DNA of 64,000 nt from a virus (IMGVR_UViG_3300036770_003093:54244-118243), one strand, 5' to 3'; shown: positions 2,903 through 64,000, counted from the first letter of the stretch. A program made the numbers and translations. Notes: generated by a model from the sequence alone, not told the origin.

Positions 2903-4159
2903 TTAAAATTTGAAAATGTTTTTGTTAGCGCGTTGTATAGTTTTTCTGGATTTATTAGTTGCTGTATCACTTTCACGCTCTACTACTGCAGAACCTACTC
3001 TACGAGCTTGTTCTGTTTTTAAGGAGCGCACAGTTTGCTCAGTTGCTGCGCGATTACCTTGAGATTTAATTTTAGTTTTAAATCCTTCAGGATCTGCTAG
3101 CAACCATAGAGCTTCAGCAATTAACTCATGATTAGGTTCAACCCACTGATACTTTTCTAAAAGGTGCCCCAACAAGTTAGTTGGTTTACCACTAATAGAT
3201 GGATATCCTGGTTGTACTAATCCAGTATAAAGCATATTTTGAGTCTTACGATCAAGCTTTACACCACCAAGTTCACCTTTTTCAAGAACACCATATACAC
3301 TATCTACAAATTGACCTGCGATAGCTTGTTGTTGTTCTTTTTGTTTTTCCTGCTCTGCAATGCGACGGGCAACTTCTTTTTCTCGAACAGCCTCTAGTTT
3401 AGGTTTATACTGACTAGCTTTTTGCTCAAGACGATCCATATCTTTAAATGTTGCAATCTCGTCTTCAATCTCGTCTTGTGACATATCACCTTTTAGAGAT
3501 AAATACTGGCGAACAATTATTTCCTGATCATTAGGATCAGAAGGATCAAGTTCCATTGCCTCATTAACTTGAGACAGTTGTTGCATCATACCTTTCAAAT
3601 CTGTTCCACCTTTAGATATATAATCCATAAGGTATTGCATTTCTCCAGGCATAGATTGAAAAATCTGCTGAGGAATTCTTTGAGAAAGTTCTGCTTCTTT
3701 TTCTTTCATGTTAGCTTCAAAAAGCTCACGAAAGTCTTTTGCAGAATACTCATCTAAAGGCTTGTCGTCATCAAATGGAAAAAGAACACCTTCTTCAATC
3801 ATTTTTGATGCAAGTTCTACAAGACCACTCTTGTCAACTTTTTTACGACCACGACCACTAGAATCCTCTTGTTGAGAGATTAAACTATCAAGTTCATTCA
3901 ATGCTTCTTCAGCATCTTCAGTGCTTAATGATTCATCATCATTTGAAGTTTCAACCTTTGCAGCAGGTTTTGCTGGTTGCGGTTTATTGTCAAGGAACGA
4001 AGTGTCTACACCTGTAGACGAAAAGATATTAGGTTTTTTCTCATCTTCCTCTTCACCTTGAACAATGATGTTCTCGGCGCCGGGAAGAGCAAACAGTTCA
4101 TCAATGTTGACATCTGCTTGTGTAACCTGTGTTACCTCTTCATTTTTATTTTCTGCCAT
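2903..4159 (-). CDS. Acidic coiled-coil capsid assembly/scaffold-like protein (crAss gene 77-like)
   Basis: Very acidic and helical; sits between portal and MCP. Confidence 0.65.
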   Translation of the reverse strand: MAENKNEEVTQVTQADVNIDELFALPGAENIIVQGEEEDEKKPNIFSSTGVDTSFLDNKPQPAKPAAKVETSNDDESLSTEDAEEALNELDSLISQQEDSSGRGRKKVDKSGLVELASKMIEEGVLFPFDDDKPLDEYSAKDFRELFEANMKEKEAELSQRIPQQIFQSMPGEMQYLMDYISKGGTDLKGMMQQLSQVNEAMELDPSDPNDQEIIVRQYLSLKGDMSQDEIEDEIATFKDMDRLEQKASQYKPKLEAVREKEVARRIAEQEKQKEQQQAIAGQFVDSVYGVLEKGELGGVKLDRKTQNMLYTGLVQPGYPSISGKPTNLLGHLLEKYQWVEPNHELIAEALWLLADPEGFKTKIKSQGNRAATEQTVRSLKTEQARRVGSAVVERESDTATNKSRKTIQRANKNIFKF

Positions 4160-4175
4160 TGTTTGTTGGTTTATG

Positions 4176-4196
4176 TTATTAATATAGACAAATTTA
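4176..4196 (-). promoter_or_regulatory. Putative promoter for the capsid operon
   Basis: Minus strand reads TAAATTTG (Bacteroidota TAnnTTTG element) followed by TCTATATTAATAA. Confidence 0.55.
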
Positions 4197-4267
4197 TTAT
4201 ATAAACTTTAAAAAGTTGAAATCGTTAGAGTTGTAATCAGGAAAAATAGTTTATTATATAGCACGCA

Positions 4268-7042
4268 CTATTTTTTCTTCTTATTTGATTCTGCTTCTTT
4301 CTCTTTTTTAATGTTCTTTAAATCATACTGATTCTTGTTTTCACGAGCAATTTGTACCTGAGCATTTATTTTTTCTCGTTCAACTTGTAACTTTTCTCTT
4401 TGAATATTTAGTTTTTCAGCCTCTGTAAGCTTTCTATTAGTTTCTTTTTCTCGTTGAAGATTAGTTTGCTCTTGGTATTGTTCTGTTTCTCTGATTTCTT
4501 TCATGGCATCTTGATAGTCAGATTGCTCATTTTTATTAATATCCATCATAGAACCATAGCCGGCAGCTCTAATTTCAGCAACAAGAATATCTTTTTGACG
4601 ATCTTTCTCTTTTTCTGCAGCCTCATATTGTTGTTTCATCTGCTCTTCTTGTTGTTTAGCCTGTTGTGCTTGTTGAGCAAGTTGCTGTTCTTGTTGATAC
4701 TGCTCTTGACGTTGAGCATTAGTTTTCTCCTCAATCTTCTTAAGAACACCAGAAACATCTGCCATAGATTCAGCCTCAATGATTTGGCCAAGATCATATA
4801 TGCTTGCGCCGGCAGTATTGTTTTGAACAGCTAGTTGTTTAATCTGATCTAAGATAGCTCTATGATTAGCTTTGGTTGTAGCATATACACCAATGTCTCT
4901 TAACAACAGATCAGTGCCATTCATCTGGAAGTTAACAATCTCGTCTTTAGAAGAGATGTATTGTAAACGAGATGAAGGTTTAGTAGAATAGTAGTATTGT
5001 GCAATGTCCGTGCGCATCTGATGCACGCGAGGCATTAGATAGTCACAGTGTTGTATAAAGTACTGTTCTGTTTGAGCATATGACCCAACAACAGCTTGCT
5101 CAATAGCAGTAGCTGTTTGTTGACCAATTTGTTGACCCATACGTTGTGGTGTTACACCAACTACTTCAAAAGCTTGCATCTTAAAGTAATTAGCAAGCTG
5201 GATCCTAGACATTAGTCTTTCTGTTTGAGAAAGATCTAGTTTTTGGAAGTGATTAAAGTTTAACGCATTCTCAGTATTAGTTATACTAGTATCTAAAGGT
5301 AGCATCTGAAAGTTCTTCATTGCTACATACGCCTTGGCTAGATTATTCCTACCCCAGTCTTCACCTGCAGAGTGGCGAGGTAAAGTATTTTGATCAAGTA
5401 GAATTACTGTACCAAGCTCGTCAACAAGAATATCAGCAATCTGGTTATTAACAATGTTATAACCAATTTGGAAAGGTTTCATCAAGTCGACGAGCGAAGT
5501 TGATCTAGTATTACGATCTGAGAAAACAGAACCCTCAACAGGCAACTTACAACCATACAAGGTAGTATCACCTTTCATTTGGTAGCGTAGTCTTCCTGGA
5601 CGATTCTTTTGTACACCTAGGTAAATAGGATTAATACCGCCGGGGTTATTCATTCCCCAAAAAGAAGGGTGATTGGGACCAATCTTTACACCACCCCAAA
5701 CATCATTAATCCAGATCCAATCAATGTGCTCACCAAAAATTAAATTGTCTTTGTTTTTATTCTTAAACAGAGTAGTGTCATATACAGGCTTATCAGTCAC
5801 AATATAATCTTCTCCAATAACAGCTGTTTCTACATTTCCTAGTTCATCAATTTTAGTTAGATGGCCTACGCGTCTTTGTGACTTCCAATATACAGTTGTT
5901 ACTCTTAGTAAGTGGGCCACGCCAACATCCAAGTAATCCTCGCTCTCAGAAAGAATCCAGTTTACAATATCACCACCATTATAAATCCAGTTGTCATATA
6001 CAGATGTAAACTGACGATATGCAAGACTTGGCATACTAGTATTCCACTCATGAGATTTCGTAGCATCATAGTAGGTGCCATCATTTTGATAACCTTGAAT
6101 AGGATAACCTGCAGAGCGCACCGGGTAAATAGCTTCTAATGACTTAAGTTCATCCTCAGTCATCAAATAACCATATTTATCAATGACATCTGAAACAGAT
6201 AACATATCTGTTTTACCTACCCAGTTACCCTGGGAGATATAACGAATATCCGGCGACTTGTGATAGAAAGTTAAAACTGGATTCCAGAGCTCTACATCAT
6301 AGTCATCTTCCATCATGTGAAAATGCCAAAACTCTCTATCTGTGATCAACATGTCACGAAAAGCGCGTTCTTCTAACTCTTCAATTTTGAAACGCTCCAT
6401 GTCATGCTGCATAAGGTGGGTAGCCCACTGTTCTGCTTGTGACTTATAGTTAGTTCTAAAGTAATCTTCAATTTCCGGTAAACTCTTTAGCTTTTCAGGT
6501 GATAGTTCTTGTTGAGCTTCTTCAGATTCAATATCCATGCCCATTTCGAGCAACTTATTTGTAATCTTAATTTGAGCATCAGTTAAAAGATACTCTTCAA
6601 CCATGGACTTCTTTTGTTCAAGAAGCTCATTATATGAATACTCGTCAATAGCTTTAAAATTGATTTTAGTGTTTCTTTTAGCAAATTCAGACACAAGAAC
6701 ATTAATTACATTTGGGATAATAGGATAGAACTTAAGTTCTAGTGCACTATAGTCTTCTTGTGTAAGAGTTTCAACAAGATCTGACATTTCATTGTTTTCA
6801 CTAACAATATAGTCTGTCTTATCAATGATCCCCTTTGCTAATTTGTAGTTCTTCATAAGGCGCCGCGCATTACGACGCAGTTGCTTTATACCATTCCACT
6901 CTAACCAGTCAACATTCCAGGCTGCCCACTCATCAGTCTTTTCTTTGTCAGGTATAAATTGTAAGGGTTGGGTAACACTACCTAACCTATTGTAATCTGC
7001 CTTTGCTCCATTCTTGAGCTGTAATGCATTATATATTTGCAT
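4268..7042 (-). CDS. Portal protein
   Basis: 924 aa directly after TerL; YPIIPNVINVLVSE motif and Q-rich C-terminal coiled coil typical of crAss-like portals. Confidence 0.85.
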   Translation of the reverse strand: MQIYNALQLKNGAKADYNRLGSVTQPLQFIPDKEKTDEWAAWNVDWLEWNGIKQLRRNARRLMKNYKLAKGIIDKTDYIVSENNEMSDLVETLTQEDYSALELKFYPIIPNVINVLVSEFAKRNTKINFKAIDEYSYNELLEQKKSMVEEYLLTDAQIKITNKLLEMGMDIESEEAQQELSPEKLKSLPEIEDYFRTNYKSQAEQWATHLMQHDMERFKIEELEERAFRDMLITDREFWHFHMMEDDYDVELWNPVLTFYHKSPDIRYISQGNWVGKTDMLSVSDVIDKYGYLMTEDELKSLEAIYPVRSAGYPIQGYQNDGTYYDATKSHEWNTSMPSLAYRQFTSVYDNWIYNGGDIVNWILSESEDYLDVGVAHLLRVTTVYWKSQRRVGHLTKIDELGNVETAVIGEDYIVTDKPVYDTTLFKNKNKDNLIFGEHIDWIWINDVWGGVKIGPNHPSFWGMNNPGGINPIYLGVQKNRPGRLRYQMKGDTTLYGCKLPVEGSVFSDRNTRSTSLVDLMKPFQIGYNIVNNQIADILVDELGTVILLDQNTLPRHSAGEDWGRNNLAKAYVAMKNFQMLPLDTSITNTENALNFNHFQKLDLSQTERLMSRIQLANYFKMQAFEVVGVTPQRMGQQIGQQTATAIEQAVVGSYAQTEQYFIQHCDYLMPRVHQMRTDIAQYYYSTKPSSRLQYISSKDEIVNFQMNGTDLLLRDIGVYATTKANHRAILDQIKQLAVQNNTAGASIYDLGQIIEAESMADVSGVLKKIEEKTNAQRQEQYQQEQQLAQQAQQAKQQEEQMKQQYEAAEKEKDRQKDILVAEIRAAGYGSMMDINKNEQSDYQDAMKEIRETEQYQEQTNLQREKETNRKLTEAEKLNIQREKLQVEREKINAQVQIARENKNQYDLKNIKKEKEAESNKKKK

Positions 7043-22968: not shown

Positions 22969-23097
22969 ATGTTTAGTAACTTAAAACAATTTGAAACTAA
23001 GCCCAATACTTTTGAAGGTACTTTTATTAAAGTAAAAGATAGAGTTATGGTTTGGCAAAATGGTGTTATACATACAGGATATGTGTATCTTCCATAA
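22969..23097 (+). CDS. Small hypothetical protein (42 aa)
   Basis: MFSNLKQFETK...VYLP after an A-rich leader. Confidence 0.45.
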   Translation: MFSNLKQFETKPNTFEGTFIKVKDRVMVWQNGVIHTGYVYLP

Positions 23098-23104
23098 TTT
23101 TACA

Positions 23105-23685
23105 GGTTGGTAAACCGTAAGCTTCCACTCTTTAAACATTCCGGGAGAACAGGCTATGCAGGAACCACAGTTAACACTCATATTGTCTGATGTATCAGAA
23201 GTGTTCTGCCTCATACCTGTTCTTACGAATCTTTTTTATTTTAAACATTTAACCCTCAATCCTATGCTCAACTCTATTCTAGAGCAGTATCGGGAGGCAC
23301 AGCAGCGGGTAAATGAGCTGTATGAACAACTGCGTAATACATCTGATGGGTATCTTTATGTTACCTGTCTGAGATGTTATGGCAGTTTGACTTGGGAGAG
23401 CCATGTCAATAAGTTCACAGTTCAGGAACTCTGTGATGAGTATGATGGTTATAATGGTATAGTGGATGTTTATACCACTAATCCTGACCATGGTATTTAT
23501 TCTTATGGCGGTGTTAAAGTTATGTCAGAAGCCGAGCTTCAAGACATGGCTAAAAAAGACATCTCCATGAGTACAGCTGTGACCAACTGGATAACACGCT
23601 CAACTGGTTATTAAGATAACCGGGGCTCACACCATATGCCTGGCAACAGAAGGTGTTTTTTTGGTTGGTAAACCGTAAGCTTCCA
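23105..23685 (+). repeat. 23-nt identical direct repeat GGTTGGTAAACCGTAAGCTTCCA (23105-23127 and 23663-23685)
   Basis: Exact match; the copies flank one gene. Confidence 0.9.
23264..23614 (+). CDS. Hypothetical protein
   Basis: Likely start MLNSIL after a typical AT-rich leader. Confidence 0.7.
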   Translation: MLNSILEQYREAQQRVNELYEQLRNTSDGYLYVTCLRCYGSLTWESHVNKFTVQELCDEYDGYNGIVDVYTTNPDHGIYSYGGVKVMSEAELQDMAKKDISMSTAVTNWITRSTGY

Positions 23686-23698
23686 AATTTTTCTTTAA

Positions 23699-24124
23699 GG
23701 TTGATAAACCTTGACAAGCATGTGGGGCAACGACACCATTCTATCTATTACTGCAAGTAAAATAGATAGTATCAAACACTTTTGCAGAGTGTAATGGTAT
23801 CATATGAGATATAATCTCTATGATTTAGCGTTTGTGCAGACTTAAAAATCATGCAGTTATAAGCAACTTGATATGTTGTGGAAGTTACATAACTTTAAAA
23901 GCAAAATGCTTATCTCTATCTCAAAAAAGTCACAGAGGTAGATGCTTAATGGTTTGTGACGAACCATAAAAATTTGGGAGTATATGCGTTAAGCCACATG
24001 ATGCAGACTGGTAATCTGTTGAATCCCATTTATATGACAACTAACAACCGACAGGGGGGTAAATACTCACCTTGTAAGTGATCTACCAAAGATTGCGAGT
24101 CCTCAACAAGCTGTTAAATCAGCC
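23699..24124 (+). ncRNA. Candidate large structured ncRNA (~425 nt)
   Basis: No ORF of 60 aa or more; closing stem ggttgat/atcagcc, long-range catgtgg/ccacatg and many internal hairpins. Confidence 0.5.
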
Positions 24125-24246
24125 AACATTCTTTTTTAGTAGTTATTTTTTCTTATATGGGATAAAGCATAGAAAAAAATCTACACCTCTTGAAGGTTAC
24201 CAAAGAGTATAAATAAATGGTAGCTCAAACTCAAAAACTTATTATT

Positions 24247-24435
24247 ATGAAAGAAACATGGTTATTGGTTTGTGAAGAATTTGGTATTCTCGACAAATGT
24301 TTAGCATCATCAAAAGATGAAGCAAGTGATATATTCAAAAAGAATAATTCATACATTGATTGGTCAGAATCAGATATATTATCAGAAGCTGATTATATGA
24401 ATGAACTTGAACTAAATTCTTTTGAATGTCAGTAA
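24247..24435 (+). CDS. Small acidic hypothetical protein
   Basis: Starts MKETWLL; flanked by similar CTACAC-hairpin motifs. Confidence 0.6.
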   Translation: MKETWLLVCEEFGILDKCLASSKDEASDIFKKNNSYIDWSESDILSEADYMNELELNSFECQ

Positions 24436-24694
24436 AAATCTTCTACACTCCCTGAGATAGTATCAAAGGGAGCTTTTTACGAATCAGAGTTAACTTGAAC
24501 AAACGATAGTTCTCAGATTGATGATGTTTCTTTTATCAACCGTGCGGGGCAGTAATCCTCGCCGCAACTAGTAAGACTAACCAATAATGTCTTACAAAAC
24601 AATCTCAAAGCCAGCACTAAGAAACTCGGCGGTCTTATGACCAATGTTTCCTTGCAACTAGAAATAGTGTGCTAAATAGTGCTGGCTTCATCTT

Positions 24695-24852
24695 TCTCTC
24701 TTCACTAACTTTAGGGTGAATAGTTGTAATCTTCAGGCAATGTAAGTAAACTACCTAAATAGCCATAACGGAAGTGCTTAAGAGCTTTCTGTTGTGTTGA
24801 TGGACAATATGTTCTTTTAGCTTTAGAAGAGATTATAACTAAGTGTTGAGAA
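24695..24852 (+). ncRNA. Structured RNA motif, copy 1
   Basis: TCTCTCTTCACTAAC..GGTGAA followed by a 12-bp stem that covaries with copy 2. Confidence 0.7.
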
Positions 24853-24854
24853 AA

Positions 24855-25007
24855 TCTCTCTTCACTAACCGCAAGGTGAACAGTTGTGATAGACAGGATT
24901 TTGTACAATCCTGACCACTGGTATAATTAAATAGTTTTGTAGTATGCCTCTACCATAAGGAAGGCTATAAAATGTTCATTATTCTATCACAACTGAGTGC
25001 AGAGGGG
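24855..25007 (+). ncRNA. Structured RNA motif, copy 2
   Basis: Same scaffold as copy 1 with a different ~90-nt insert. Confidence 0.7.
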
Positions 25008-25076
25008 TAAAAAACTTAATAACTTCCAAAGTTGTTGAGAACACAAGTTTTTCTTTAAAACATAAATAAAATAGAC

Positions 25077-25289
25077 ATGAAAGTTATAGCAACTATTCCT
25101 TCTTTTGATAAGAATAAGTCTTATTCTGACGTAGTAAAGTCTAAGCATATTCCTGTTTATCCTAATCAATGTCCTTGCCACTATGGGTATGAATGCGATG
25201 ATCCTAATTTTGATTATAGCAAACCTATAGGCTACATAGAAGTAGATAAGAACGATGAAAGAAACAGTGTTTTAGACACAGATACCTGA
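25077..25289 (+). CDS. Small hypothetical protein
   Basis: 70-aa ORF with an A-rich leader. Confidence 0.55.
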   Translation: MKVIATIPSFDKNKSYSDVVKSKHIPVYPNQCPCHYGYECDDPNFDYSKPIGYIEVDKNDERNSVLDTDT

Positions 25290-25361
25290 GCAAGTATTTA
25301 AACTGCTCTAGTAAATCATCCTACTTAGTGGATGAATAACCTCTTTTAAAAACCAAAAACC

Positions 25362-25643
25362 GTGAAACAAAGATTTCAAAACATTCTATTAGCCACTGCT
25401 GTAGTTCTTACTGGTGTATTCATTAGTGCTTTTACTATTGAGACTCTTGATAAAGAACCGGCGCCGCCGCTAAAACAACTTTCTTACGAGAAAATCCAGG
25501 CTATTAACGCCCTGGAAGATATGCGTGATTGGGTGTATGAAGATTTAGCATATGTAGAAGAAGATTCGGTGCTTACCGCGCGTCTACAAGCCTATATCAA
25601 CAACATAGATTACGCAATCGAAATGTTAAACAACGAACAGTAA
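25362..25643 (+). CDS. Membrane-anchored hypothetical protein
   Basis: N-terminal hydrophobic helix. Confidence 0.65.
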   Translation: MKQRFQNILLATAVVLTGVFISAFTIETLDKEPAPPLKQLSYEKIQAINALEDMRDWVYEDLAYVEEDSVLTARLQAYINNIDYAIEMLNNEQ

Positions 25644-25673
25644 ACTCAAAAATCAACTCAAATACTCAATCCA

Positions 25674-26741
25674 ATGAACACTATCATTAAATCTTACAAC
25701 ATGGATAAAATAGCAGATGTTCTTGCTATAGAAAATCCTATTGCAAAAAGAATCGCTGTTGGAAAAAGCCCAATCAGTGGCTATGAAACATCTATTTGTG
25801 TCAAAGATGGTAAAACGTACTTTTCTTCAAGATACATGTGTACAGCCATAGGCAGTACTGGAAATGTATATCTTAAGATCGATACACAATGCGGTTTTAC
25901 TTATGATGGTAAAACTATCAAATACTGGTTTGGTAAGAGTCCTTTTCAGCATTTATCACAAGAAGATCTATACGCGCTTATGACGCATTTAGGCTTAGAT
26001 TGGATTAAGTCTAAAGAATTCAACAGCCTATATTTTCATTACAAAAGTGTTGTTCTTAAAATCTTACAAGGTAAAATCACAAACTTTGAAGATTTGTACA
26101 AGGCTATCATGAAAAGCATGCGTGTCAAGAACTGCTCACCAAAACTGTTTGAAAAGGTTTTAAATCATATGAGAAGATTTCAAATCAGTCAACTGGTAAG
26201 AGTTACCGAAAATCACGGCGAGCAGTTTATAGCGTACATGAAACAGGATAAGAATCTGCAAATACTTGGAGACACCATAGAACAAGCAGTACTACTTGGT
26301 GAAAAGATAGATCTTCGTTGGTCGAATAAAAGACTAAATGAAGTTCACACGGATTTTACCAGAAGGATAATGTTCTATGAAGCTGAAACTGTCAAAAATG
26401 TAGATTTTACCATTCCTGAAGTTAAGTATATAGCTGAAGAAAGGAACTTTGAGTACATCTCTAACAACAGAAGGTTGTATGAAGAAGGCATGATACAGAA
26501 ACATTGCGTTTACACTAACTACTCCAACATGTGTATAGACAAGAGATTTCTTGTTTTTAACATTGATGGTTACACACTTGGTGTGAACGTAAATAATTCT
26601 GTAGATAACTCTTCTGTATTCAATAAAAGGTTTACCTTTAATCAGCTTTATGGTAAATTCAATGCTCCGGCGCCTATAGAGATAAGTCAAAAGGCAGAGC
26701 GTTTTATTGAAGAACTTAACTCTAGAGTTACTCTAAACTGA
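25674..26741 (+). CDS. PcfJ-like domain protein
   Basis: LNEVH...LYEEGMIQKHCVYTNY...FNQLYGKFN pattern. Confidence 0.75.
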   Translation: MNTIIKSYNMDKIADVLAIENPIAKRIAVGKSPISGYETSICVKDGKTYFSSRYMCTAIGSTGNVYLKIDTQCGFTYDGKTIKYWFGKSPFQHLSQEDLYALMTHLGLDWIKSKEFNSLYFHYKSVVLKILQGKITNFEDLYKAIMKSMRVKNCSPKLFEKVLNHMRRFQISQLVRVTENHGEQFIAYMKQDKNLQILGDTIEQAVLLGEKIDLRWSNKRLNEVHTDFTRRIMFYEAETVKNVDFTIPEVKYIAEERNFEYISNNRRLYEEGMIQKHCVYTNYSNMCIDKRFLVFNIDGYTLGVNVNNSVDNSSVFNKRFTFNQLYGKFNAPAPIEISQKAERFIEELNSRVTLN

Positions 26742-28692: not shown

Positions 28693-28792
28693 AGTCAGGT
28701 GGCAGAATTGGTAACAGTTCCTGGGCTATTAAGGATGCTGGAAACGGTAGATAGAGAGATTCTTAATGCGGGTTCGATTCCCGCCCTGGCTC
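28693..28792 (+). ncRNA. tRNA-like RNA without a canonical anticodon arm, copy 2
   Basis: AGTCAGG/CCTGGCT acceptor stem, TGGCAGAATTGGTAA D-like region and GCGGG-TTCGATT-CCCGC T-arm. Confidence 0.65.
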
Positions 28793-28806
28793 CTAATTTA
28801 AAACAA

Positions 28807-28944
28807 ATGGAAGAATTAGATAAAAAGTTTCAAGAATTAGGTTGGAGAGACACAACCGAGGCATATTATGGATTGGATTTTACTCCTTTCATGAGTATCA
28901 TTATAGAACACATTTCAGAAATCTCTAAAAAACAAGAACTATGA
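28807..28944 (+). CDS. Small hypothetical protein
   Basis: ATG after the tRNA-like element; ATGA overlap with the next gene. Confidence 0.55.
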   Translation: MEELDKKFQELGWRDTTEAYYGLDFTPFMSIIIEHISEISKKQEL

Positions 28945-55621: not shown

Positions 55622-55660
55622 ATGGGGGATTGAGCTTATGCTCTTTCCCCCATTTTTTTT
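55622..55660. terminator. Terminator between converging gene blocks
   Basis: atggggga/tcccccat hairpin with a T-run. Confidence 0.8.
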
Positions 55661-58600
55661 TACTTACGCGCTTCAACAGATTCTTGTGGCATGATTCCTC
55701 TGCCCACTGGGTCATAGAACTTACCTTTAACACCAAATAGACTTAGAGTATGGTTCATAATCTTGTAGCTATCTTTTTCTTGCCATGAGAATGGACCAAC
55801 ATCTCTAGTATACTTAGCTTTCTCTGAGCCAATTGACATATAGAACATGTCTTTTAGCAATGTTCCCATTTGACCTATTGACCTGCCAAATACTAAACTT
55901 GTTAAGTCAGCATTTTCACGAAGGTCTTCTAAACCAAGTTTTGGTACTGGGATAAAAGATGTTGTTTCTGCAAATACGTTTTTAGAAAACAAAATCAAGT
56001 GTTGAGCTAACCACCAATCAACGTTAAAGTTATTACTAAACATATCTCCTGATTTTGCCCGCAACTTTTTATATCTATCGTCATCACCTGGGTCATATCC
56101 AAACAGTATTGTAGACATCATGTATAGCATAGCTATAATGATAACCTCCATTAGTATTTTACGAAGAGCATACTTCTCTTCTTTGCTCATGAACTTCCAA
56201 TACTTATTTGATACATTAGCCATTTTAATTAGTGCAAGAACACCCTCAACATAATATCCTCTTTCTACAGTGTTCATTGCCCAATTATACCTGTATCCAC
56301 CAACATTACCATCCCGGGTACTAAAACCAAATCTATTCATAAACATTTCAGTAAAATATTTACGAAGGAAGCTTGTTACTTTATATGCATAGAACTTATT
56401 AGCCATAGGTAGGTCAATATCAGCATATGCACCATAAAGTTTATTAGCAGCATTTTGCATCAACGTTTTAAACTTAGCATACTCAGTACCACCTAAGTCA
56501 TATTTTTTATCAACGCCGTCTTTCAATTTCATTTTACCAGAAGCATCCAGCTCCCAAGCATCAATGTACCGGATGTTTATCTTCTTACCATCACTAGTAG
56601 TTCTCTCGATGATTTTATGATGCATCATCCCAAAGAATAACTCTAAAACAGATTGTCTCTCTAAAAACTTACGAGGAGACATAAAGAAAGACAAACTTGT
56701 AACATCGCTAATAAATCCACGACTTTGAGTTTTACCAAAGTTTTGGTTAAAGTAACTCTGGCCGGGATCAAAGTTTAACATCATTTGTGTCTGTAGAGAA
56801 GGTAAACCTTTCTCATATCTCTGGCCCTGCATGCGAACCATTTGTTGGTGAGCCATTCTACTACCCACAGCCAAACTATACAGCGTTATGTTCTTACCAC
56901 CCGCAGCCTCAATAGCATTTTGTACAATCTGTCCACCCCAGTTCTTAGTAGCAGATACTAAATCTAAAGCAAAGAATCCAAATGATACTTGCTTCATAAA
57001 GAACTTGGTGATTTTATTTAGGTATGGATTATCACCAAAACTATTATTCTGTATACCTAAAAACTCACGATCATAAAGATGTGATATCTGAGCAGCTCTT
57101 AAATCTTGCCGGCGTTTATCACGAACATACTTAGTTATACCCTTTACACGAGCAATGTTTTTGTTTACAAGCTTAGTATTTTTCTGAGCATTTTGTTCTG
57201 AACCAGTGAATTCTTTAAGTGCTCTACCCAATGGGTCCATATCACTTAGCTGTTTATAGCGCATCGCGCTGAATAAGTACTTGTGGAAAGTTCTTATTAC
57301 ATCTAGTGATACCTGGTCAGTTTCTAATCTAGATAATCCACCAATTGGAATATATTCCTGCTCTTCACCTAATGCATTTACACGAACCATGTTCTTTTGA
57401 GAATCATAGTTTACATCTGAATCTGCAGTTTCACGAAATAGCGGTTCCTCTTCTCTAGCCTCTCTACTTACTAAACCTTTAATTTGTGTCCATGTACGCA
57501 GAGCTTTTTTCTTAATCTCGCCGCGAAGAATTAATTCTTGATTGTCTTCTATACCAAATCTTGGTAAGTCAAGATAAAGCTTACCATATGTAGATACTAC
57601 ATTTTGTGTTTGAAGATGGTACTTTTTCATAATCTCTAATATCTTATAGATATCAGAGTTTTTGTCCATGGCCTCAAACTCTTTGTTTATGTACCTATCA
57701 TCTTTAGCTGAGTTTCTATCTCCTGGAACATAAGGTCTAGGTAAGAAATTAGGATTCTCAGAAAGATTAGTGTTGTCGATATAAACACCTACATAACTGG
57801 ACCAGTCATCTTTCTTTAAAAGCTTGTATTCTTTTTTTACAGAACGATCATAAAATCTTGAACCGGGTACAGCGTTAACTGTTATATACTCACCTGTTTT
57901 CAGTTTTACCGTAGTAGTCTTTAAATAAGACTCATTAGTTGGTCTAATAATATTCCATAGATACAACCTCTCGTAGTAAACACCATCTTTATTTTCTTTT
58001 TGTACGTGATTTGCTAAAAACCAATCTTTAAAAGATCCATCAAGAGACATTAGAAAATTAGCTGTTGCGGCGTCAGCAGAAATATTAGTAGCTTCTTCAG
58101 CATTAACTTCATCTCTACCAAGCTTACTCATCCAAAAGTTTATAGTATCTACATAATCCTGATTTGGTTCTTTACTAGTAAGATCTGAAATATTACCTAA
58201 CAAACTGTAATAAATATCTTTATCCGCTTTACTTAAACCCAGAGCATCTTTCTTAGTTCTAAGAGTAGCAAACTCTGTAGCCTCAGATGGGGTATGCATT
58301 GTTGTCTTGTTATTAAGTTCATTGTATCTATCCCATTCAACAGAAGATAACCCAGATACACCAACTTGTTCTCTTTGAATTTGAACTATCTCTTCTTGTA
58401 AGTCTTTTACTTTCTTAAATGTTTCTGGTGATAAAACAGTTACATCAATTTGACCACTAGGATCCCGGGCAAGAATTAAAAGGTCATTGATCTCAGAATG
58501 TATTTCAGTAATTCTTGTGTTTCTAGCACCAGCAGGAAACTTAGCATTAATGAAATCTGTTAGTGCTTGTATTGCACGCTGTTTATCATCAAAGTATTTT

Positions 58601-61600
58601 TCATTGAATTCAACACGAGTGTTTTGATCTAACCACTCCATTAACCTTGCTTCCCTTTCTTCTTCATTTAATCCCTCAGCAATCAAACTATCTTCAAACG
58701 CTGAAAAAGCTTTTTCAAAAGCGCCCTCTTTAAGTTTATACTCATAAAACTTCCTACTCTTTTCAGCGTATTCTTGATGAGTCTTTGCTTTTGTTAAATC
58801 AAATATCCCACGAGCTGGATCATCAATCTTTGGAGTACCATCTTCATATGTAAGTTTAGATAACTCTTTTAGTTGACGTTCTAGAGATCTAATGTTTGAA
58901 TAGCTGTTGAAACGATCTAATTCTGTTTGTAAGGGGGTTCTTGCATTCCGCAGCTCAGTAAGAATAATCTCCTTCTCCATTAATGCATCCCGGGTAACAT
59001 CATTCTTATCATAAACAGAATCTTTTACATCGTAATATTCCCGATCATACATCTGCCACATATAATCAGATTTGAATTTCTCCAAAGCTTTATATGCAGC
59101 TCTAATAGCTGTTTGATCTTTACTCTCTATAGCTTTTTGAAGACCAAATTCTAGTTGAGAAAGATCAAACCGGTAATCTTTAAATCTATCCATGTATGAC
59201 CACACCCTTTGCAGTACTAACTCACCTTTTTCATTAATGTCAGCGACAGCATCTTCAAAAGCTAAAGCCTTACCAAGAAGTAAAATTTCATTCTTGCTTA
59301 GATTTTTAAGGAAAGGTTGTAACTCTTCTATAAGATCGTTAGATATGCGCGCGGTCTCAGCGTCAATCTCAGCATATTTGTTTTTAAGATATGCAAAGAA
59401 TGGACCAGATATCAAACTTTGACTAGCACTATATGATTCTAGATACGCATTTAACCAGTTCATTCCTGGCCCTTCACCAACTAACTCAGCTCTAATCTTC
59501 TCAGGTGTAATCTCTACACCCTTGTAGTTTTTTATCTGAGCCTTAAGTGCAGACTCAGCGCCTCTAGACATTTTGCTTTTATCTGCTTCTGTTAATGGTT
59601 GATTAGCAATAAGTTTTTCAGCAATTTGCTCTGCAAAAGCTTCATCACCAGTATCAATTCTAACAATGTTTTTAAACCTTTCACCAAAATTTTGTTCGAT
59701 GTTCAGTCTCATGTCTTTAGTTAAGTCACCTAAAAACTTAGTAAGCTGTTCTTCAAGAATTTTATTTGATTTTCTTTTTATGACAGATATGCTTGTTGAC
59801 ATCGCACTTACCGTATCGTTAAAATCCCTGATGCCTTGTTTTTGAACAGCGTTATTTAAGTCACTATCCTGAATTACCTCTTGAAGAGGGTTAATAAAAT
59901 TCTCTTCTACATACAATGCTAAATCACGATAGTACATAATTCTAGCAATTGTATCAGGGGTAACATCCTCTGGTTTTAATTCTTCTAAAGCCCTAATATT
60001 TTGCTTTATAACATTAAATACTTGATTGTATCCAAACAGAGCTCTTGCTAATGCGGCAGCTTGTCTGTTCTTAGCAATAGCATCTTCAGCCATAGCATTT
60101 ACTATGTTCCTTCTATTTAAGCTAGAATCTGACATTAACTGAGAACGCATCTGCTCAAATACAGAATCTTTCTCAATTAAAGCTTTTATCTCATTATCAT
60201 TAGAACGTTTAACAAGCTGTTCAAATTCTTGAGCTGATACTGTAGCAGCATCAATTAAACTTAAAACAGTTGCGCCGGTGCTTTCTACGGCATTTACAAA
60301 CTCTATCTGCTCTCTAGTTTCAAGGCGTATAAACTCGGCAACCTCGTCATTAGTAAACACCTCAGAACTTAAAGCAAACTTTTCTCCCGTCATCATATCT
60401 ACCAGCTGCTTAATGCTGGTATTAGTATTAAGCTTTTCGATTTTAATACTCTTACCAAACAGACCTCTTAACAACTGTTTGATATGGAAAAGAATCTTCT
60501 CAATCCATGACTTATACTGTTTAGATACAGGCTCACCAGTATTACGCATTTGTCCCTCAAGACCCATGGCTGTAACAATAACCTCCTCTTTTAATCTATC
60601 TCCAGTATAATCATAGTTTCTTTGAACTCTAGCTAATACCTTTTGACCCTCTGGTGTAGAAATCAACTCTTCATATAGAGCATTAAACAACTTAGGATTC
60701 TGTATTCTTATAGATTGTATCAAAGGGTGAGCAAACTCGTGGAATACAGTTTCTGCAGTAATTTGGCCTTCTACAAAGTACACTTTGCCATTATAGAAAA
60801 ACGCGGGCTCCCCTCTATACTCAATACCACTATCTTTTAAAATCATAGCCGCTTCCTCGGAAGAAGCAACTGTTTCAAAGGGAACACCTAAATTATCAGA
60901 TAACACCTGCATAAGTGAACTGATAGCTTCATTACCAAAGTTATTACTGGTTTGTTCTTGGCTGTAAGTGGCGCCGGGATTATAATTATCCTCACTATTC
61001 TCAAAGAACTCTTCTACTTGATCTCTATAATCTGGGAGCTTAATGCTTACATCCCTATCTAAGTTATCTGTGGGTGTAGAAACATCTGGTCTAAAGAAAG
61101 AAATCCTGTTTTTTAAATCTCTATTTACATTAATATCAACTTCATTCCAGGTATTACCATATTCGTCTGTAACTAATACAGGGTTATAACCTTGTTTTTT
61201 AAGAACATTAGCTATAGTATTTTCATAGAAGTTATAGATAGGTGCTAATGCACTGAATCCTTCTGTTTCTACTCTTTCAAGTTCTTGTTTAAGTTGATTT
61301 ATTTCATTAGTATTATCTACCTCTTGTATATAAATATCATATCCAGACTCTGAATCTAATTCATCTTTTCTTTTTTGAGCTTTTTCTTTAGTTTTGAAAA
61401 AACCTATGAAATTATTATATTCATCAATTAGATTAAATCCTCTCTCCTGTTTTTCAAGTTCCTTAATCCTATCTTCTTTTTGTTTTTTAAATTCCTCTAA
61501 AGTAGAATGTCCTTCTATTTTACTAGCTGTATTACCTGTAGGAAATAATACTCTCTCATATCCTTTTTTAGCAGAGTCTTGTATAATCGATTTAACAAAG

Positions 61601-64000
61601 AATGTAACCCAGTTATTGTCTTTGTTTAGGAGTTGTAAAAATTCGTTGCTGCTATCATTTTCTCTTATATAATTTTTTGATATTTTTTCATCATTTCTGT
61701 ATTCTTCAAAAAGTAATTTTGAAAGTTCAGGATATTTTTTTTGTAATATTGCTTTTCTACCTATTTCTCCTTTATACTCTATTTTAATAGAGGGCGAGTC
61801 CGTATAAATTACACCATTTACTTCTTGTTTACGATTTCTTTTAATTAATCGTAACATATCTCTACCTTTCTGAAATAAATCAGATTGTACTTCTAGTATT
61901 CTTCTTGTTTTAGAACCATATTTCTTAGTTTCTTTATATTCCTTTCTTTTACCTACCCAATCATCTATTTCTTCCCAAATATCTTCTTTTTTACTAATTT
62001 GTTCATCACTTCTAAACCATCCAATACCTTTATCAGTAGCAAATTGAGCATGTCCTTTAATAGAAGGAGTAATAGCTGGTGTAGCTATTTCATTTTCTGT
62101 ATAATTAGTACCTCCTGGAACTGTTAAATTAGAGTAATATTGAGTAGGGTTGCGTCCTTTTTTTAATTCTATTTCTATTAGTTTTAATTCTTCTTTAGTA
62201 GCAGGAACTCTCTCATATTCGTCTATCCAACCTATTCCACTAAGTTTAAAATCTTTACCGGCTACAGAAACATAACTACCTTCTAAATCTGTAGAAGAAC
62301 CATCTTTAGCAATATTAATCTCAATAGTATAACTATAATTAGCAATGAATGATGCTAGTTTTTCTTCTATACTTTCACCAGATGATTCTCTTAATAATAA
62401 GACTTGTTGCTTAGGGATCTGTAGATCTTGTTGAATTTTGTTCCAAAATTTATCAGTATTACCTAAAGATTTATACCACTGATTTATCTTAGATATATTG
62501 TTATTTAAAATCTGAACCACCTTAAAATCATAGTATACCTTATTAGAATCAAATACTTCTTCTACACCTGTTTTGATAACATTATCTCTACCAACAAAAT
62601 CCTTAAATAATTCTATATCTTTTTTAGTTCCTAATTGATGAACTTGTTCTTTCTTATATGTAACATATGTTTTTTCATTAACTCCTTGACCACTATCTCT
62701 TCCAATTACTGAATCAGTATTTTTTTCTCTTACTTCGTCAGGAGTTACATATTCATCTCCTAATCCACTTTCTCTAAACTCTTTAGCTCTATCTGTAAAT
62801 TCATAGTATGAATCAACAATAGTAGGGTTGGTTATGTTTAAAAGAATTGGAATTCTTTTACCTTTTATTTCTTCTAGCTCTGTTAACCAAGAACCGAAAT
62901 CTGTAGAATAAAAAGCTTTATTATCTGTTAGGAATATAGTCCCGGTTTTATTAACGTGATATACAATATCTTTTACTTGACTACCGGGGAATATAGTATC
63001 TAAGTATTGAGAGTATTGTTCAGGAGTTCCTATAGAAGCTAGCTCAGGATTAGAATCAAATAGCTCTTGTACTCCTGGTTTGATTGGTGTAGATGGTATT
63101 TTTTGAAAAGGTATATCATCTTGATCCCACTGAGTGAATGGTATATCCTCAGATATAGGCTTAACTTCACTTCTAATTAAACTTCTAGGATACTTCTTAG
63201 CTACTTCTTTAAGCTTGGCTATTTTAGTGTTGATTAACGCTTGTTCTGTGTAGTTTTTTTTAGGAATTATTTGTTCATTTAACTCTTCTTCAGATAGTGA
63301 CTCTAAATATTTTAATCTTTGTTCTTGATTACCTAATAAACCAAAGGGTTCTATTGCTAATAAGATTTCTAGTTCTTCCTTAAATGTTTTTGGTTTTAAA
63401 ACTTTAGCTTTAAAACTCTCAATACTTGTAGTATTCTCTTTAGTTTGAGTTGGTTGGATACCTTGTTCATAATTAGATTTTAAGTTTTTAATATATTCAA
63501 CAGCATCTTTAATTTCATAAAAAAATTCAAGTTCCCCTTCTTTTTCAGAATATACATAATACCCTTCAACTTTATTATACTGTCCTTTCTCATAATCAGG
63601 ATTTTCTAATCTTTCTCTAATTGTTGTAACACCATATTTATTTACAAAAGAGTTTAAATTGGTAATCTCAGGCTTAACTAACTTACCATACTTTTGGTCA
63701 AGTATTCTATTGATACTATCAATAATTTTTTTAGTCTGATAAGGAATATCTTCATCATATTCTAATCTAAAGTTATTTCCTGTAAGAGAAATACCTAATT
63801 CATTATGATGATGCGCTAAATCATCTACAATAGAAGCTAAATTTGGTTGTATAGCATTTACATTACTTAAAGAAGGATATTTAGTATAGCTAACACCAAG
63901 CAGTTCAGATTTTTTATCCTTGCTCACTTTTTCAGAAGCATCCCACACACTTCCTGAATAAACATCTGTATTTGCAGCCCATTTAATATCTTTAGATTTG
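55660..64000 (-). CDS. Giant polyvalent virion/ejected protein, 5'-truncated
   Basis: Frame stays open to the window edge (KSKDIKWAANTDVYSGS precedes the listed start); over 2770 aa; contains HEFAH zincin motif and an ART-like module. Confidence 0.75.
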   Translation of the reverse strand, partial: KSKDIKWAANTDVYSGSVWDASEKVSKDKKSELLGVSYTKYPSLSNVNAIQPNLASIVDDLAHHHNELGISLTGNNFRLEYDEDIPYQTKKIIDSINRILDQKYGKLVKPEITNLNSFVNKYGVTTIRERLENPDYEKGQYNKVEGYYVYSEKEGELEFFYEIKDAVEYIKNLKSNYEQGIQPTQTKENTTSIESFKAKVLKPKTFKEELEILLAIEPFGLLGNQEQRLKYLESLSEEELNEQIIPKKNYTEQALINTKIAKLKEVAKKYPRSLIRSEVKPISEDIPFTQWDQDDIPFQKIPSTPIKPGVQELFDSNPELASIGTPEQYSQYLDTIFPGSQVKDIVYHVNKTGTIFLTDNKAFYSTDFGSWLTELEEIKGKRIPILLNITNPTIVDSYYEFTDRAKEFRESGLGDEYVTPDEVREKNTDSVIGRDSGQGVNEKTYVTYKKEQVHQLGTKKDIELFKDFVGRDNVIKTGVEEVFDSNKVYYDFKVVQILNNNISKINQWYKSLGNTDKFWNKIQQDLQIPKQQVLLLRESSGESIEEKLASFIANYSYTIEINIAKDGSSTDLEGSYVSVAGKDFKLSGIGWIDEYERVPATKEELKLIEIELKKGRNPTQYYSNLTVPGGTNYTENEIATPAITPSIKGHAQFATDKGIGWFRSDEQISKKEDIWEEIDDWVGKRKEYKETKKYGSKTRRILEVQSDLFQKGRDMLRLIKRNRKQEVNGVIYTDSPSIKIEYKGEIGRKAILQKKYPELSKLLFEEYRNDEKISKNYIRENDSSNEFLQLLNKDNNWVTFFVKSIIQDSAKKGYERVLFPTGNTASKIEGHSTLEEFKKQKEDRIKELEKQERGFNLIDEYNNFIGFFKTKEKAQKRKDELDSESGYDIYIQEVDNTNEINQLKQELERVETEGFSALAPIYNFYENTIANVLKKQGYNPVLVTDEYGNTWNEVDINVNRDLKNRISFFRPDVSTPTDNLDRDVSIKLPDYRDQVEEFFENSEDNYNPGATYSQEQTSNNFGNEAISSLMQVLSDNLGVPFETVASSEEAAMILKDSGIEYRGEPAFFYNGKVYFVEGQITAETVFHEFAHPLIQSIRIQNPKLFNALYEELISTPEGQKVLARVQRNYDYTGDRLKEEVIVTAMGLEGQMRNTGEPVSKQYKSWIEKILFHIKQLLRGLFGKSIKIEKLNTNTSIKQLVDMMTGEKFALSSEVFTNDEVAEFIRLETREQIEFVNAVESTGATVLSLIDAATVSAQEFEQLVKRSNDNEIKALIEKDSVFEQMRSQLMSDSSLNRRNIVNAMAEDAIAKNRQAAALARALFGYNQVFNVIKQNIRALEELKPEDVTPDTIARIMYYRDLALYVEENFINPLQEVIQDSDLNNAVQKQGIRDFNDTVSAMSTSISVIKRKSNKILEEQLTKFLGDLTKDMRLNIEQNFGERFKNIVRIDTGDEAFAEQIAEKLIANQPLTEADKSKMSRGAESALKAQIKNYKGVEITPEKIRAELVGEGPGMNWLNAYLESYSASQSLISGPFFAYLKNKYAEIDAETARISNDLIEELQPFLKNLSKNEILLLGKALAFEDAVADINEKGELVLQRVWSYMDRFKDYRFDLSQLEFGLQKAIESKDQTAIRAAYKALEKFKSDYMWQMYDREYYDVKDSVYDKNDVTRDALMEKEIILTELRNARTPLQTELDRFNSYSNIRSLERQLKELSKLTYEDGTPKIDDPARGIFDLTKAKTHQEYAEKSRKFYEYKLKEGAFEKAFSAFEDSLIAEGLNEEEREARLMEWLDQNTRVEFNEKYFDDKQRAIQALTDFINAKFPAGARNTRITEIHSEINDLLILARDPSGQIDVTVLSPETFKKVKDLQEEIVQIQREQVGVSGLSSVEWDRYNELNNKTTMHTPSEATEFATLRTKKDALGLSKADKDIYYSLLGNISDLTSKEPNQDYVDTINFWMSKLGRDEVNAEEATNISADAATANFLMSLDGSFKDWFLANHVQKENKDGVYYERLYLWNIIRPTNESYLKTTTVKLKTGEYITVNAVPGSRFYDRSVKKEYKLLKKDDWSSYVGVYIDNTNLSENPNFLPRPYVPGDRNSAKDDRYINKEFEAMDKNSDIYKILEIMKKYHLQTQNVVSTYGKLYLDLPRFGIEDNQELILRGEIKKKALRTWTQIKGLVSREAREEEPLFRETADSDVNYDSQKNMVRVNALGEEQEYIPIGGLSRLETDQVSLDVIRTFHKYLFSAMRYKQLSDMDPLGRALKEFTGSEQNAQKNTKLVNKNIARVKGITKYVRDKRRQDLRAAQISHLYDREFLGIQNNSFGDNPYLNKITKFFMKQVSFGFFALDLVSATKNWGGQIVQNAIEAAGGKNITLYSLAVGSRMAHQQMVRMQGQRYEKGLPSLQTQMMLNFDPGQSYFNQNFGKTQSRGFISDVTSLSFFMSPRKFLERQSVLELFFGMMHHKIIERTTSDGKKINIRYIDAWELDASGKMKLKDGVDKKYDLGGTEYAKFKTLMQNAANKLYGAYADIDLPMANKFYAYKVTSFLRKYFTEMFMNRFGFSTRDGNVGGYRYNWAMNTVERGYYVEGVLALIKMANVSNKYWKFMSKEEKYALRKILMEVIIIAMLYMMSTILFGYDPGDDDRYKKLRAKSGDMFSNNFNVDWWLAQHLILFSKNVFAETTSFIPVPKLGLEDLRENADLTSLVFGRSIGQMGTLLKDMFYMSIGSEKAKYTRDVGPFSWQEKDSYKIMNHTLSLFGVKGKFYDPVGRGIMPQESVEARK

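Follow-up and report, generated by a model that had tools for sequence, protein, structure and literature searches.

Flavivirus exonuclease-resistant RNA (xrRNA) folds as a three-way junction whose 3′ tail is paired with a hairpin loop, and it occurs in tandem copies upstream of RNA that may need protection. The phi29 pRNA, a phage packaging RNA of ~120-170 nt, has paired ends and a near-perfect three-way junction. The RNA described here occurs as two tandem units in a window of viral DNA of 64,000 nt (the whole stretch that was analysed) and is similar in outline to both. It shares with xrRNA, as that RNA is generally described, the junction, the loop-tail pairing, the tandem copies and the placement, but its pseudoknot loop is carried by another helix, its 5′ end shows no pairing to the junction, and the subtype found in the window has a plain helix in place of the pseudoknot, which a ring-like fold would not tolerate. 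Size, paired ends and the junction are also common to the units and the phi29 pRNA, and a loop pairing of 3-4 nt could in principle act between molecules; unlike the pRNA, however, the units are found in an unrelated phage group, in 1-3 copies with differing inserts, and there is no sequence likeness between the two.

Closer in setting are the drum, skipping-rope, ROOL and GOLLD motifs, which combine a junction and/or a pseudoknot with many highly conserved nucleotides and which are described as orphan RNAs with links to phages and tRNAs and with no association with gene-specific 5′ UTRs (Weinberg et al. 2017, PMC5737381). The units resemble these motifs in all of these respects. They differ in having another fold and no match in Rfam 15, and in being confined to contigs of uncultured crAss-like phages. 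The Hatchet (RF02678) and hammerhead ribozymes are likewise small phage RNAs located on the same strand and in the same non-coding islands as the units, and a peripheral stem of Hatchet can hold a long insert too, but the units match neither model, do not contain the hammerhead core letters, and include minimal variants without an unpaired core.

A catalogue of 8495 candidate structured RNAs, named ‘DNAVirus_X’, each at most 151 nt long (median 65), has been compiled from IMG/VR (Fremin et al. 2023, PMC10690425); it stems from the same data source and holds the same kind of object as the units. The junction-fold motif is absent from the main text of that report, to which our comparison extends; given its hundreds of copies, the motif or parts of it may already be among the DNAVirus_X entries. 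Literature searches by core sequence returned unrelated primer matches only, and searches on ribozymes, crAss-like phages and structured RNAs returned no description of the motif. Because strong covariation supports the fold, which recurs across hundreds of viral contigs, and because neither Rfam nor cultured phages contain an equivalent, the family constitutes a new and unnamed orphan RNA class, possibly one that has a catalogue number already.

Results

Two tandem units fold as three-way junctions

The two units are encoded on the + strand, unit 1 (U1) at 24695-24852 and unit 2 (U2) at 24855-25010. The first-pass annotation, made from the sequence, had noted that both share the layout TCTCTCTTCACTAAC-N5-GGTGAA, beginning at 24695 and 24855 with a spacing of 160 nt, and this layout is present as described. 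The corresponding 21-nt pattern, CTTCACTAACNNNNNGGTGAA, has two perfect matches in the 64-kb window, namely U1 and U2; at up to 3 mismatches there are 4 matches against 0.79 expected, the extra two carrying 3 mismatches each.

In U1, P1 pairs 24695-24706 with 24842-24851 and contains two U-U mismatches. A mini-hairpin (24708-24717) and a GAA linker (24718-24720) lead to P3, a 12-bp stem of TAGTTGTAATCT (24721-24732) and AGATTATAACTA (24830-24841) that encloses a 97-nt insert (24733-24829). U2 has the same arrangement, with P1 and its extension pairing 24855-24866 with 24996-25007, an ACC-GCAA-GGU hairpin at 24868-24877, the GAA linker at 24878-24880, and a 12-bp P3 of CAGTTGTGATAG (24881-24892) and CTATCACAACTG (24984-24995) around a 91-nt insert (24893-24983). 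Between the two P3 stems there are four two-sided changes (pairs 1, 8, 11 and 12) in addition to a change from G-U to G-C (pair 6), in agreement with the earlier count.

The three-way junction proposed at first pass is the MFE fold of each unit folded alone. U1 reaches -41.7 kcal/mol (z -2.56), with 4 of 200 shuffles equal or better, and U2 reaches -52.6 kcal/mol (z -5.47), with none of 200. The non-coding region 24436-25076 is unusually structured as a whole (z -8.9; none of 20 shuffles equal or better). R1, a covariance model for which other phages supplied most of the units, scores U1 at 45.8 bits and U2 at 64.2 bits (E 3e-14 for U2), the U1 match spanning 78925-79100 of record G000, which is 24682-24857 of the window; when the window alone was searched with default filters, U2 was reported and U1 was missed. 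The alternative TTCAC/GTGAA hairpin that had been suggested can now be placed more exactly, as the positional counterpart of the family helix P2 (CUCAC/GUGAG), which covaries strongly in the main form. The UUCAC strand of U1 and U2 is predicted to pair either with AGUG.. in P1 or with GUGAA in the P2 counterpart, and the two pairings would be mutually exclusive. Relatives of the two inserts of the window are absent from the other loci compared.

The units belong to a widespread family of phage RNAs

U1 and U2 had appeared as a novelty of two copies; they belong instead to a family present in several hundred viral contigs. Homologues with covariation, whose absence from viral metagenomes had been set beforehand as grounds for abandoning the proposal, were found in IMG/VR. 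An initial scan with the 21-nt motif gave 21 loci, among which L011 and L012 alone hold true homologues, the others being chance matches in coding sequence. Scans with a gapped pattern, derived from the five units known at that stage, gave 94 and 59 loci with 156 matches, 134 of them distinct, and L155 alone looks like chance. A third pattern, in which P3 was left free, gave more than 120 loci among the matches listed, and with E limited to 1e-5, model R1, built from 70 units, found 129 matches distributed over 94 loci. The scan of a prokaryote genome collection yielded 8 matches, all on contigs of metagenome-assembled genomes, and these probably sit on phage contigs. Searches of GenBank phages by blastn with the island described below and with a best-scoring unit produced no true match, the early region of Cellulophaga phage phi14:2 contains no unit of the junction-fold family, and none of the relatives sought through a neighbouring protein was confirmed. 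In phi14:2 (L256), a tmRNA-like match is located at 4031-4502, between g004 and g006 (46 bits against a cut-off of 47, E 4.5e-16); a preprint describes an abundant, long-lived early non-coding RNA from this g004-g006 region.

The copy number is 1-2 units per record in nine records that are at least 93% complete, including that of the window, and in one that is 85% complete. Up to 3 units are seen in genome fragments; of 155 loci in a less sensitive scan, 25 had two units and 3 had three. U1 and U2 are diverged copies of a widespread structured RNA family of uncultured, distantly crAss-like phages, and we hold the identity and structure of this family, as described here, with high confidence.

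The window comes from a 118-kb virus record with a completeness of 99%. Phage families are matched by its portal protein, its large terminase and its major head protein, and the terminase shares 25-26% identity with the terminases of crAss-like phages that infect Bacteroides, Flavobacterium and Cellulophaga; judged by these sequences, the host phage is a distant crAss-like virus. The minus strand of the window contains a 2762-aa ORF (55660-63948) whose size and place presumably fit the giant virion RNA polymerase of crAss-like phages.

Family fold and covariation

The family fold is modelled as a three-way junction. In this model the 5′ end is joined to the 3′ end by P1 (UGCAC/GUGCA), P2 forms a hairpin (CUCAC/GUGAG), and the base of P3, CAGUUGUAAU/AUUACAACUG (CAG UUGUAAU / AUUACAA CUG), is followed by a variable insert of ~30-300 nt, with a single A between P3 and P1. 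The GGGR tail at the 3′ end is predicted to be paired in every form, with one of two partners. In the main forms it would pair with the P2 loop UCCC to give a pseudoknot. In type C and its relatives the P2 loop is without CCC, and pairing of 5′ CYCUUU with AGAGGG would extend P1 to ~11 bp. The subtype of the window is predicted to engage its tail in the P1 extension, with P2 shrunk to a 3-bp hairpin plus the GAA linker.

Among 62 model-aligned sequences, 92.8% of cells are paired and two-sided changes occur at 20 of 25 pairs (98 cells; 0 of 500 shuffles as high), although these pair counts lean towards the model, to which P1-P3 were fitted; with the partner shifted by 1-3 columns as a control, 28-48% of cells in the same sequences are paired. 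The pseudoknot lies outside the model and still covaries at three of its four pairs, CCC/GGG changing to CCA/UGG and CAC/GUG. In the P3-free scan, CAGUUGUAAU is kept in 81 of 129 distinct sequences and the remainder are compensated, as in CAGAUGUACA/UGUACAUCUG, with a P3 span of 39 to 310 nt. Many U-G pairs are present in the helices on the + strand, three of them in the P1 extension, and they favour an RNA read from that strand. The core of ~60 nt is nearly identical even between phages with no detectable similarity in the proteins encoded beside it, a conservation that is partly by construction because the retrieval patterns fixed parts of the core.

Types, minimal variants and exchange of inserts

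Three 5′ types with a common core were distinguished among 132 classified units. Type A (68 of 132) reads uuaAUGCACCAyAACUCACUUCCCAAG-GGUGAGCAGUUGUAAU..insert..AUUACAACUGAGUGCAGAGGGr, type B (33 of 132) is as type A with a conserved domain of 135-190 nt inside P2, and type C (13 of 132, among them U1, U2, the first L011 unit and L012) reads CUCUUUGCACUAACC-NNNN-GGUGAG.... The type B domain, GUGGAUAUAAAGACUUCUUA .. AGAUGUAAAACCAC followed by CUGAUUAAU..UUAAUCAG, is located at 8236-8460 in L036, at ~1930-1800 on the minus strand of L011 and at 6175-6345 in L103; in L011 it contains a hairpin with a T-loop-like sequence.

The unpaired conserved nucleotides of the main form are J1/2 (CAYAA), the loop AAGG, and GA between P1 and the tail. 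Minimal variants (L026:11806, L100:224 and L099:553) have two unpaired A in the junction and a very short P2 loop of 2-6 nt, and L103:6606 is a unit without any P2. Such variants are kept in several phages, with a plain helix in place of the pseudoknot, and the junction-adjacent helices of the units are free of internal loops.

Both the covariation of the family and the differences between inserts bear out the original description of a conserved, covarying scaffold with unrelated inserts, and the insert does behave as an exchangeable cassette. Identity between L103 and the window is 92-96% over the segment with Hatchet, over the extra hairpin, over the U2 end together with the hairpin after it, and over the following ORF, and the units between these flanks differ: at the site of U1 and U2, L103 has a type B unit, a small ORF and the unit without P2. 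Insert families are common to phages of different 5′ types, as in L012/L024, L011/L057 and L031/L036.

The units reside in mosaic islands of RNA modules

The units are found on the sense strand of the early small-gene region, within mosaic RNA-module islands. The island of the window (23615-25076) consists, in order, of Hatchet, a conserved stretch, a small ORF, a two-hairpin block, an extra hairpin, U1, U2 and a hairpin with a UUCCAAA loop, and each of these modules recurs in other loci in other combinations. The Hatchet self-cleaving ribozyme (23691-23854, + strand; Rfam RF02678, 66.4 bits against a cut-off of 51) is followed by a conserved non-coding stretch (23855-24113, + strand) that is 95% identical in L011 and 86% in L103, and then by the small ORF (24217-24435). 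The upstream conserved block (24477-24605, + strand), with two hairpins including GUAAGAC..GUCUUAC, is 96% identical to L012; counting L011, which has its 5′ part, and 10 more loci with its 3′ half, the block is represented in 12 loci. Just 5′ of U1, the extra 12-bp hairpin (24607-24691, + strand; 24608-24619 with 24677-24688) is 96% identical to L103 6090-6174 and is missing at the corresponding place in L012. U2 is followed by the conserved downstream hairpin module (25008-25056, + strand), whose stem, as read from the sequence, is CUUAAUAAC (25015-25023) with GUUGUUGAG (25031-25039). Copies of this module that are 83-94% identical (E up to 1e-3) occur in 17 other loci, directly after a unit in five (L011, L026, L082, L084 and L103) and ~450-1400 nt upstream of a unit in others, and its loop (UUCCCAAG or UUCCAAA) resembles the main-form P2 loop UUCCCAAGG.

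RNA-library contigs from four metatranscriptome runs in 3 studies cover only 23695-24103 of the region 23600-25300, and the contigs having been chosen by shared words, their lack of cover over U1 and U2 is uninformative either way. Two of the contigs start at 23695, near the expected Hatchet cleavage site. Besides the window, 4 of 49 other records with units contain Hatchet, that of L011 included. In L053, a hammerhead core (CUGAUGAG..CGAAAC..GUC, ~2735-2800) is placed 3-4 nt after the unit, with a RAGATH-1-hammerhead score of 35.5 bits, short of the cut-off of 56.3.

All recurrent flanking ORF clusters with a median position downstream of the units are on the units' strand, and no conserved neighbour protein was found, the best cluster being present in 17 of 155 loci. 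For 35 of 145 units, an ORF that begins with ATG and encodes at least 40 aa starts 30-49 nt downstream. Same-strand tRNAs are found downstream of 51 of 186 units and upstream of 5, and two of the downstream tRNAs are only 5 and 10 nt away. Many loci contain, between a unit and the next ATG and 10-20 nt before start codons, a recurrent A-rich motif similar to UUAAAACUAAA, possibly a signal for translation initiation or a promoter in these phages. Recurrent non-coding sequences after the units, for example UUACUCUUGUCCAAGCAGG..CAAGGUUGCAACCUUG.. and GCAUAAGUGCUGAUGAAACAAUGCAG..., were observed in L078, L052, L173 and L176, in L040, L068 and L090, and in L057, L061, L044, L164 and L140; in the loci tested, none of them has a match at Rfam gathering score.

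On the upstream side of type A units there is usually a variable hairpin plus UUUGUUAA. Hairpin-plus-U-run elements directly 5′ of units have the appearance of terminators and, if efficient, would leave the units in need of a promoter of their own. A scan for promoters of the sigma-70 type found none for the units, and the downstream motif AAAACTTAATAAC was rejected as a promoter, its 11 matches against 7.7 expected being no enrichment. Within 23000-25600 of the window, 0 terminator-like sites were found.

Comparison with known RNA classes

The first reading had recognised no known family in the units, and a scan with the covariance models of Rfam 15 agrees, with nothing credible on them. At gathering score the window contains Hatchet (23691-23854) and one weak tRNA match only. 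The latter (28693-28792, 100 nt, 30.3 bits against a cut-off of 29) overlaps an 81-aa ORF (28699-28944) and has no ARAGORN call. At E up to 10, the units within 23000-26000 receive only a non-credible lncRNA match (24527-24726), and L036 8200-9100 gives only snoRNA and miRNA noise. Eleven loci with main-type units have no match on the units at gathering score, and the nested pseudoknots and conserved loops encoded in Rfam models gave no match to types A, B and C at E up to 10. With regard to tRNA and tmRNA, ARAGORN reports 0 genes in the window, L011 and L012, and no Rfam tRNA or tmRNA match falls on the units. A micro-ORF in type A (AUG..UAA, 12 codons) was also considered and rejected, as the length of J1/2 (CAYAA or CAUU) shifts the frame, type C is without AUG, and the changes are pair-compensating.

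A guide role had been suggested at first pass, and the inserts were compared with their own phage genome and with 401 Bacteroidota genomes, where no convincing target was seen. In the former the best match is 28.2 bits, where shuffled inserts have a mean of 26.8 and a maximum of 32.2; in the latter, 16 genomes have weak, scattered matches of 21-41 nt (per-genome E 2e-4 to 1e-2). Host RNA complementary to the conserved 3′ strand amounts to scattered matches with 2-3 mismatches, similar to the control.

Discussion

We tentatively favour the view that each unit is a generic nuclease-resistant RNA module with sealed ends, and not a sensor or an enzyme. In the invariant part, a long irregular helix made of P1 together with its extension or the pseudoknot would be stacked on the conserved base of P3 and would hold the two ends of the unit in a clamp. 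Clamping of the ends would produce a compact, nuclease-resistant body that could persist as a discrete stable small RNA, or could shield or insulate the downstream RNA of early polycistronic transcripts. The junction-proximal helices would then represent the recognised or structural core and P3 a tolerated peripheral domain, exchanged among phages by recombination, with P2 and the P3 insert dispensable or exchangeable. It is the invariant end clamp, taken together with the generic placement of the units before unrelated ORFs, tRNAs and modules, that points to a general-purpose RNA body, and the neighbours of the units include elements that create or define RNA ends. For the crAss-like isolate phi14:2, a preprint reports abundant, long-lived early non-coding RNAs that originate from its long intergenic regions and whose levels are maintained as infection proceeds (10.1101/2020.03.07.982082).

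The main rival to a nuclease-resistant module is a trans-acting small RNA in which the junction binds a conserved protein or machine of the host (Bacteroidota) or the phage and P3 serves as a variable effector or specificity domain, an explanation that is possible but, on balance, doubtful. Such an RNA would better explain the retention of helix sequences, beyond that of mere pairings, and the conservation of sequence near the junction in excess of the needs of stability does hint at a specific partner. The near-identity of the ~60-nt core across phages with dissimilar neighbouring proteins, the sharing of insert families between 5′ types (the three pairs of loci named above among them) and the differing inserts of near-identical phages are consistent with this explanation as well. 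The 5′ and 3′ ends of the unit pair with each other, as is common among stable RNAs. No protein gene co-occurs beside the units, however, and the fixed spacing to a start codon that a quarter of the units keep suggests a role in cis.

A bolder proposal, speculative and in our estimation rather improbable, is that the junction is bound by a conserved factor of host or phage and acts as a modular platform whose exchangeable P3 cargo provides decoys or aptamers, aimed at the defences or the RNA machinery of the host, in an arms race at the RNA level, or else that the main pseudoknotted form is a new class of self-cleaving ribozyme. An arms-race device is suggested because P3 cargo is swapped as cassettes between near-identical phages.

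The possibility that the units in general form a new class of self-cleaving ribozyme, which the first-pass annotation had entertained, appears unlikely. The small junction with its pseudoknot, the conserved unpaired nucleotides of the main form, the arrays of 2-3 units, and the company of Hatchet (window and 4 of 49 other records) and of the L053 hammerhead core would suit a ribozyme, but the family contains members with J1/2 = A, a P2 loop of 2-6 nt and J3/1 = A, or with P2 missing. In these variants a plain helix replaces the pseudoknot, and the junction helices have no internal loops. Because minimal members have almost no unpaired conserved core, they argue against both a self-cleaving ribozyme and a riboswitch, and no Rfam ribozyme family matches the units at E up to 10. 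A hammerhead in particular was rejected, since the strands of the junction read A (or CAYAA), GAA or none, and A, without the CUGANGA/GAAA core, and no hammerhead model matches.

A role as an RNA anti-CRISPR decoy that mimics the host CRISPR repeat:anti-repeat duplex is very unlikely. The 5′ strand of P3 does start with GUUGUAAU or GUUGUGAU, and the same 8 letters open the CRISPR repeats of 24 of 401 Bacteroidota genomes, which begin GTTGTGAT or GTTGTAAT (1 genome with the reversed-pattern control). These repeats, however, are 46-47 nt long with an array period of 76-77 nt, and their likeness to P3 stops after the first 8-9 nt, so that the decoy proposed at first pass fails as a mimic of the repeat. 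Mimicry of a type II guide scaffold was rejected as well: the three tracrRNA candidates go on with AAGG.. and a terminator, continuing AAGGAUUAUUCCG.. or AAGGCUAUAAGCCG.., where the units have UGAGUGCAGAGGG, and the P3 bases covary freely in other members of the family.

Phage N4 virion RNA polymerase uses hairpin promoters, and the units are situated upstream of early-region ORFs, as a DNA-level element (a folded single-strand promoter or origin) might be. The crAss-like virion polymerase gp66 transcribes single-stranded and hardly double-stranded DNA, and its early transcripts have no common upstream motif, according to a preprint (10.1101/2020.03.07.982082), which would also suit such an element. 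It is nevertheless hardly credible, because the many U-G pairs of the sense strand, which as DNA would read T-G, with A-C on the template strand, disfavour a fold at the DNA level, and extrusion of a pseudoknot and of 30-300 nt loops from duplex DNA would be unlikely. Equally improbable is a riboswitch or other gene-specific cis-regulator, to which the tandem occurrence, the junction with pseudoknot and the frequent 5′ UTR position might point, but which is disfavoured by the lack of a conserved downstream gene family (17 of 155 loci for the best cluster), by the other RNA modules or tRNAs that follow many units, by minimal variants without a pocket-like core, and by the absence of a terminator-like expression platform from 23000-25600 of the window.

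The scaffold itself, with clamped ends and P3 inserts of 30-300 nt, could serve as a display scaffold in RNA engineering. Crassvirales, the crAss-like phages of Bacteroidota, are an order reported as abundant in the mammalian gut, and finding the partner of the junction, or the RNA under its protection, would give access to early infection at the RNA level in the relatives of these phages.
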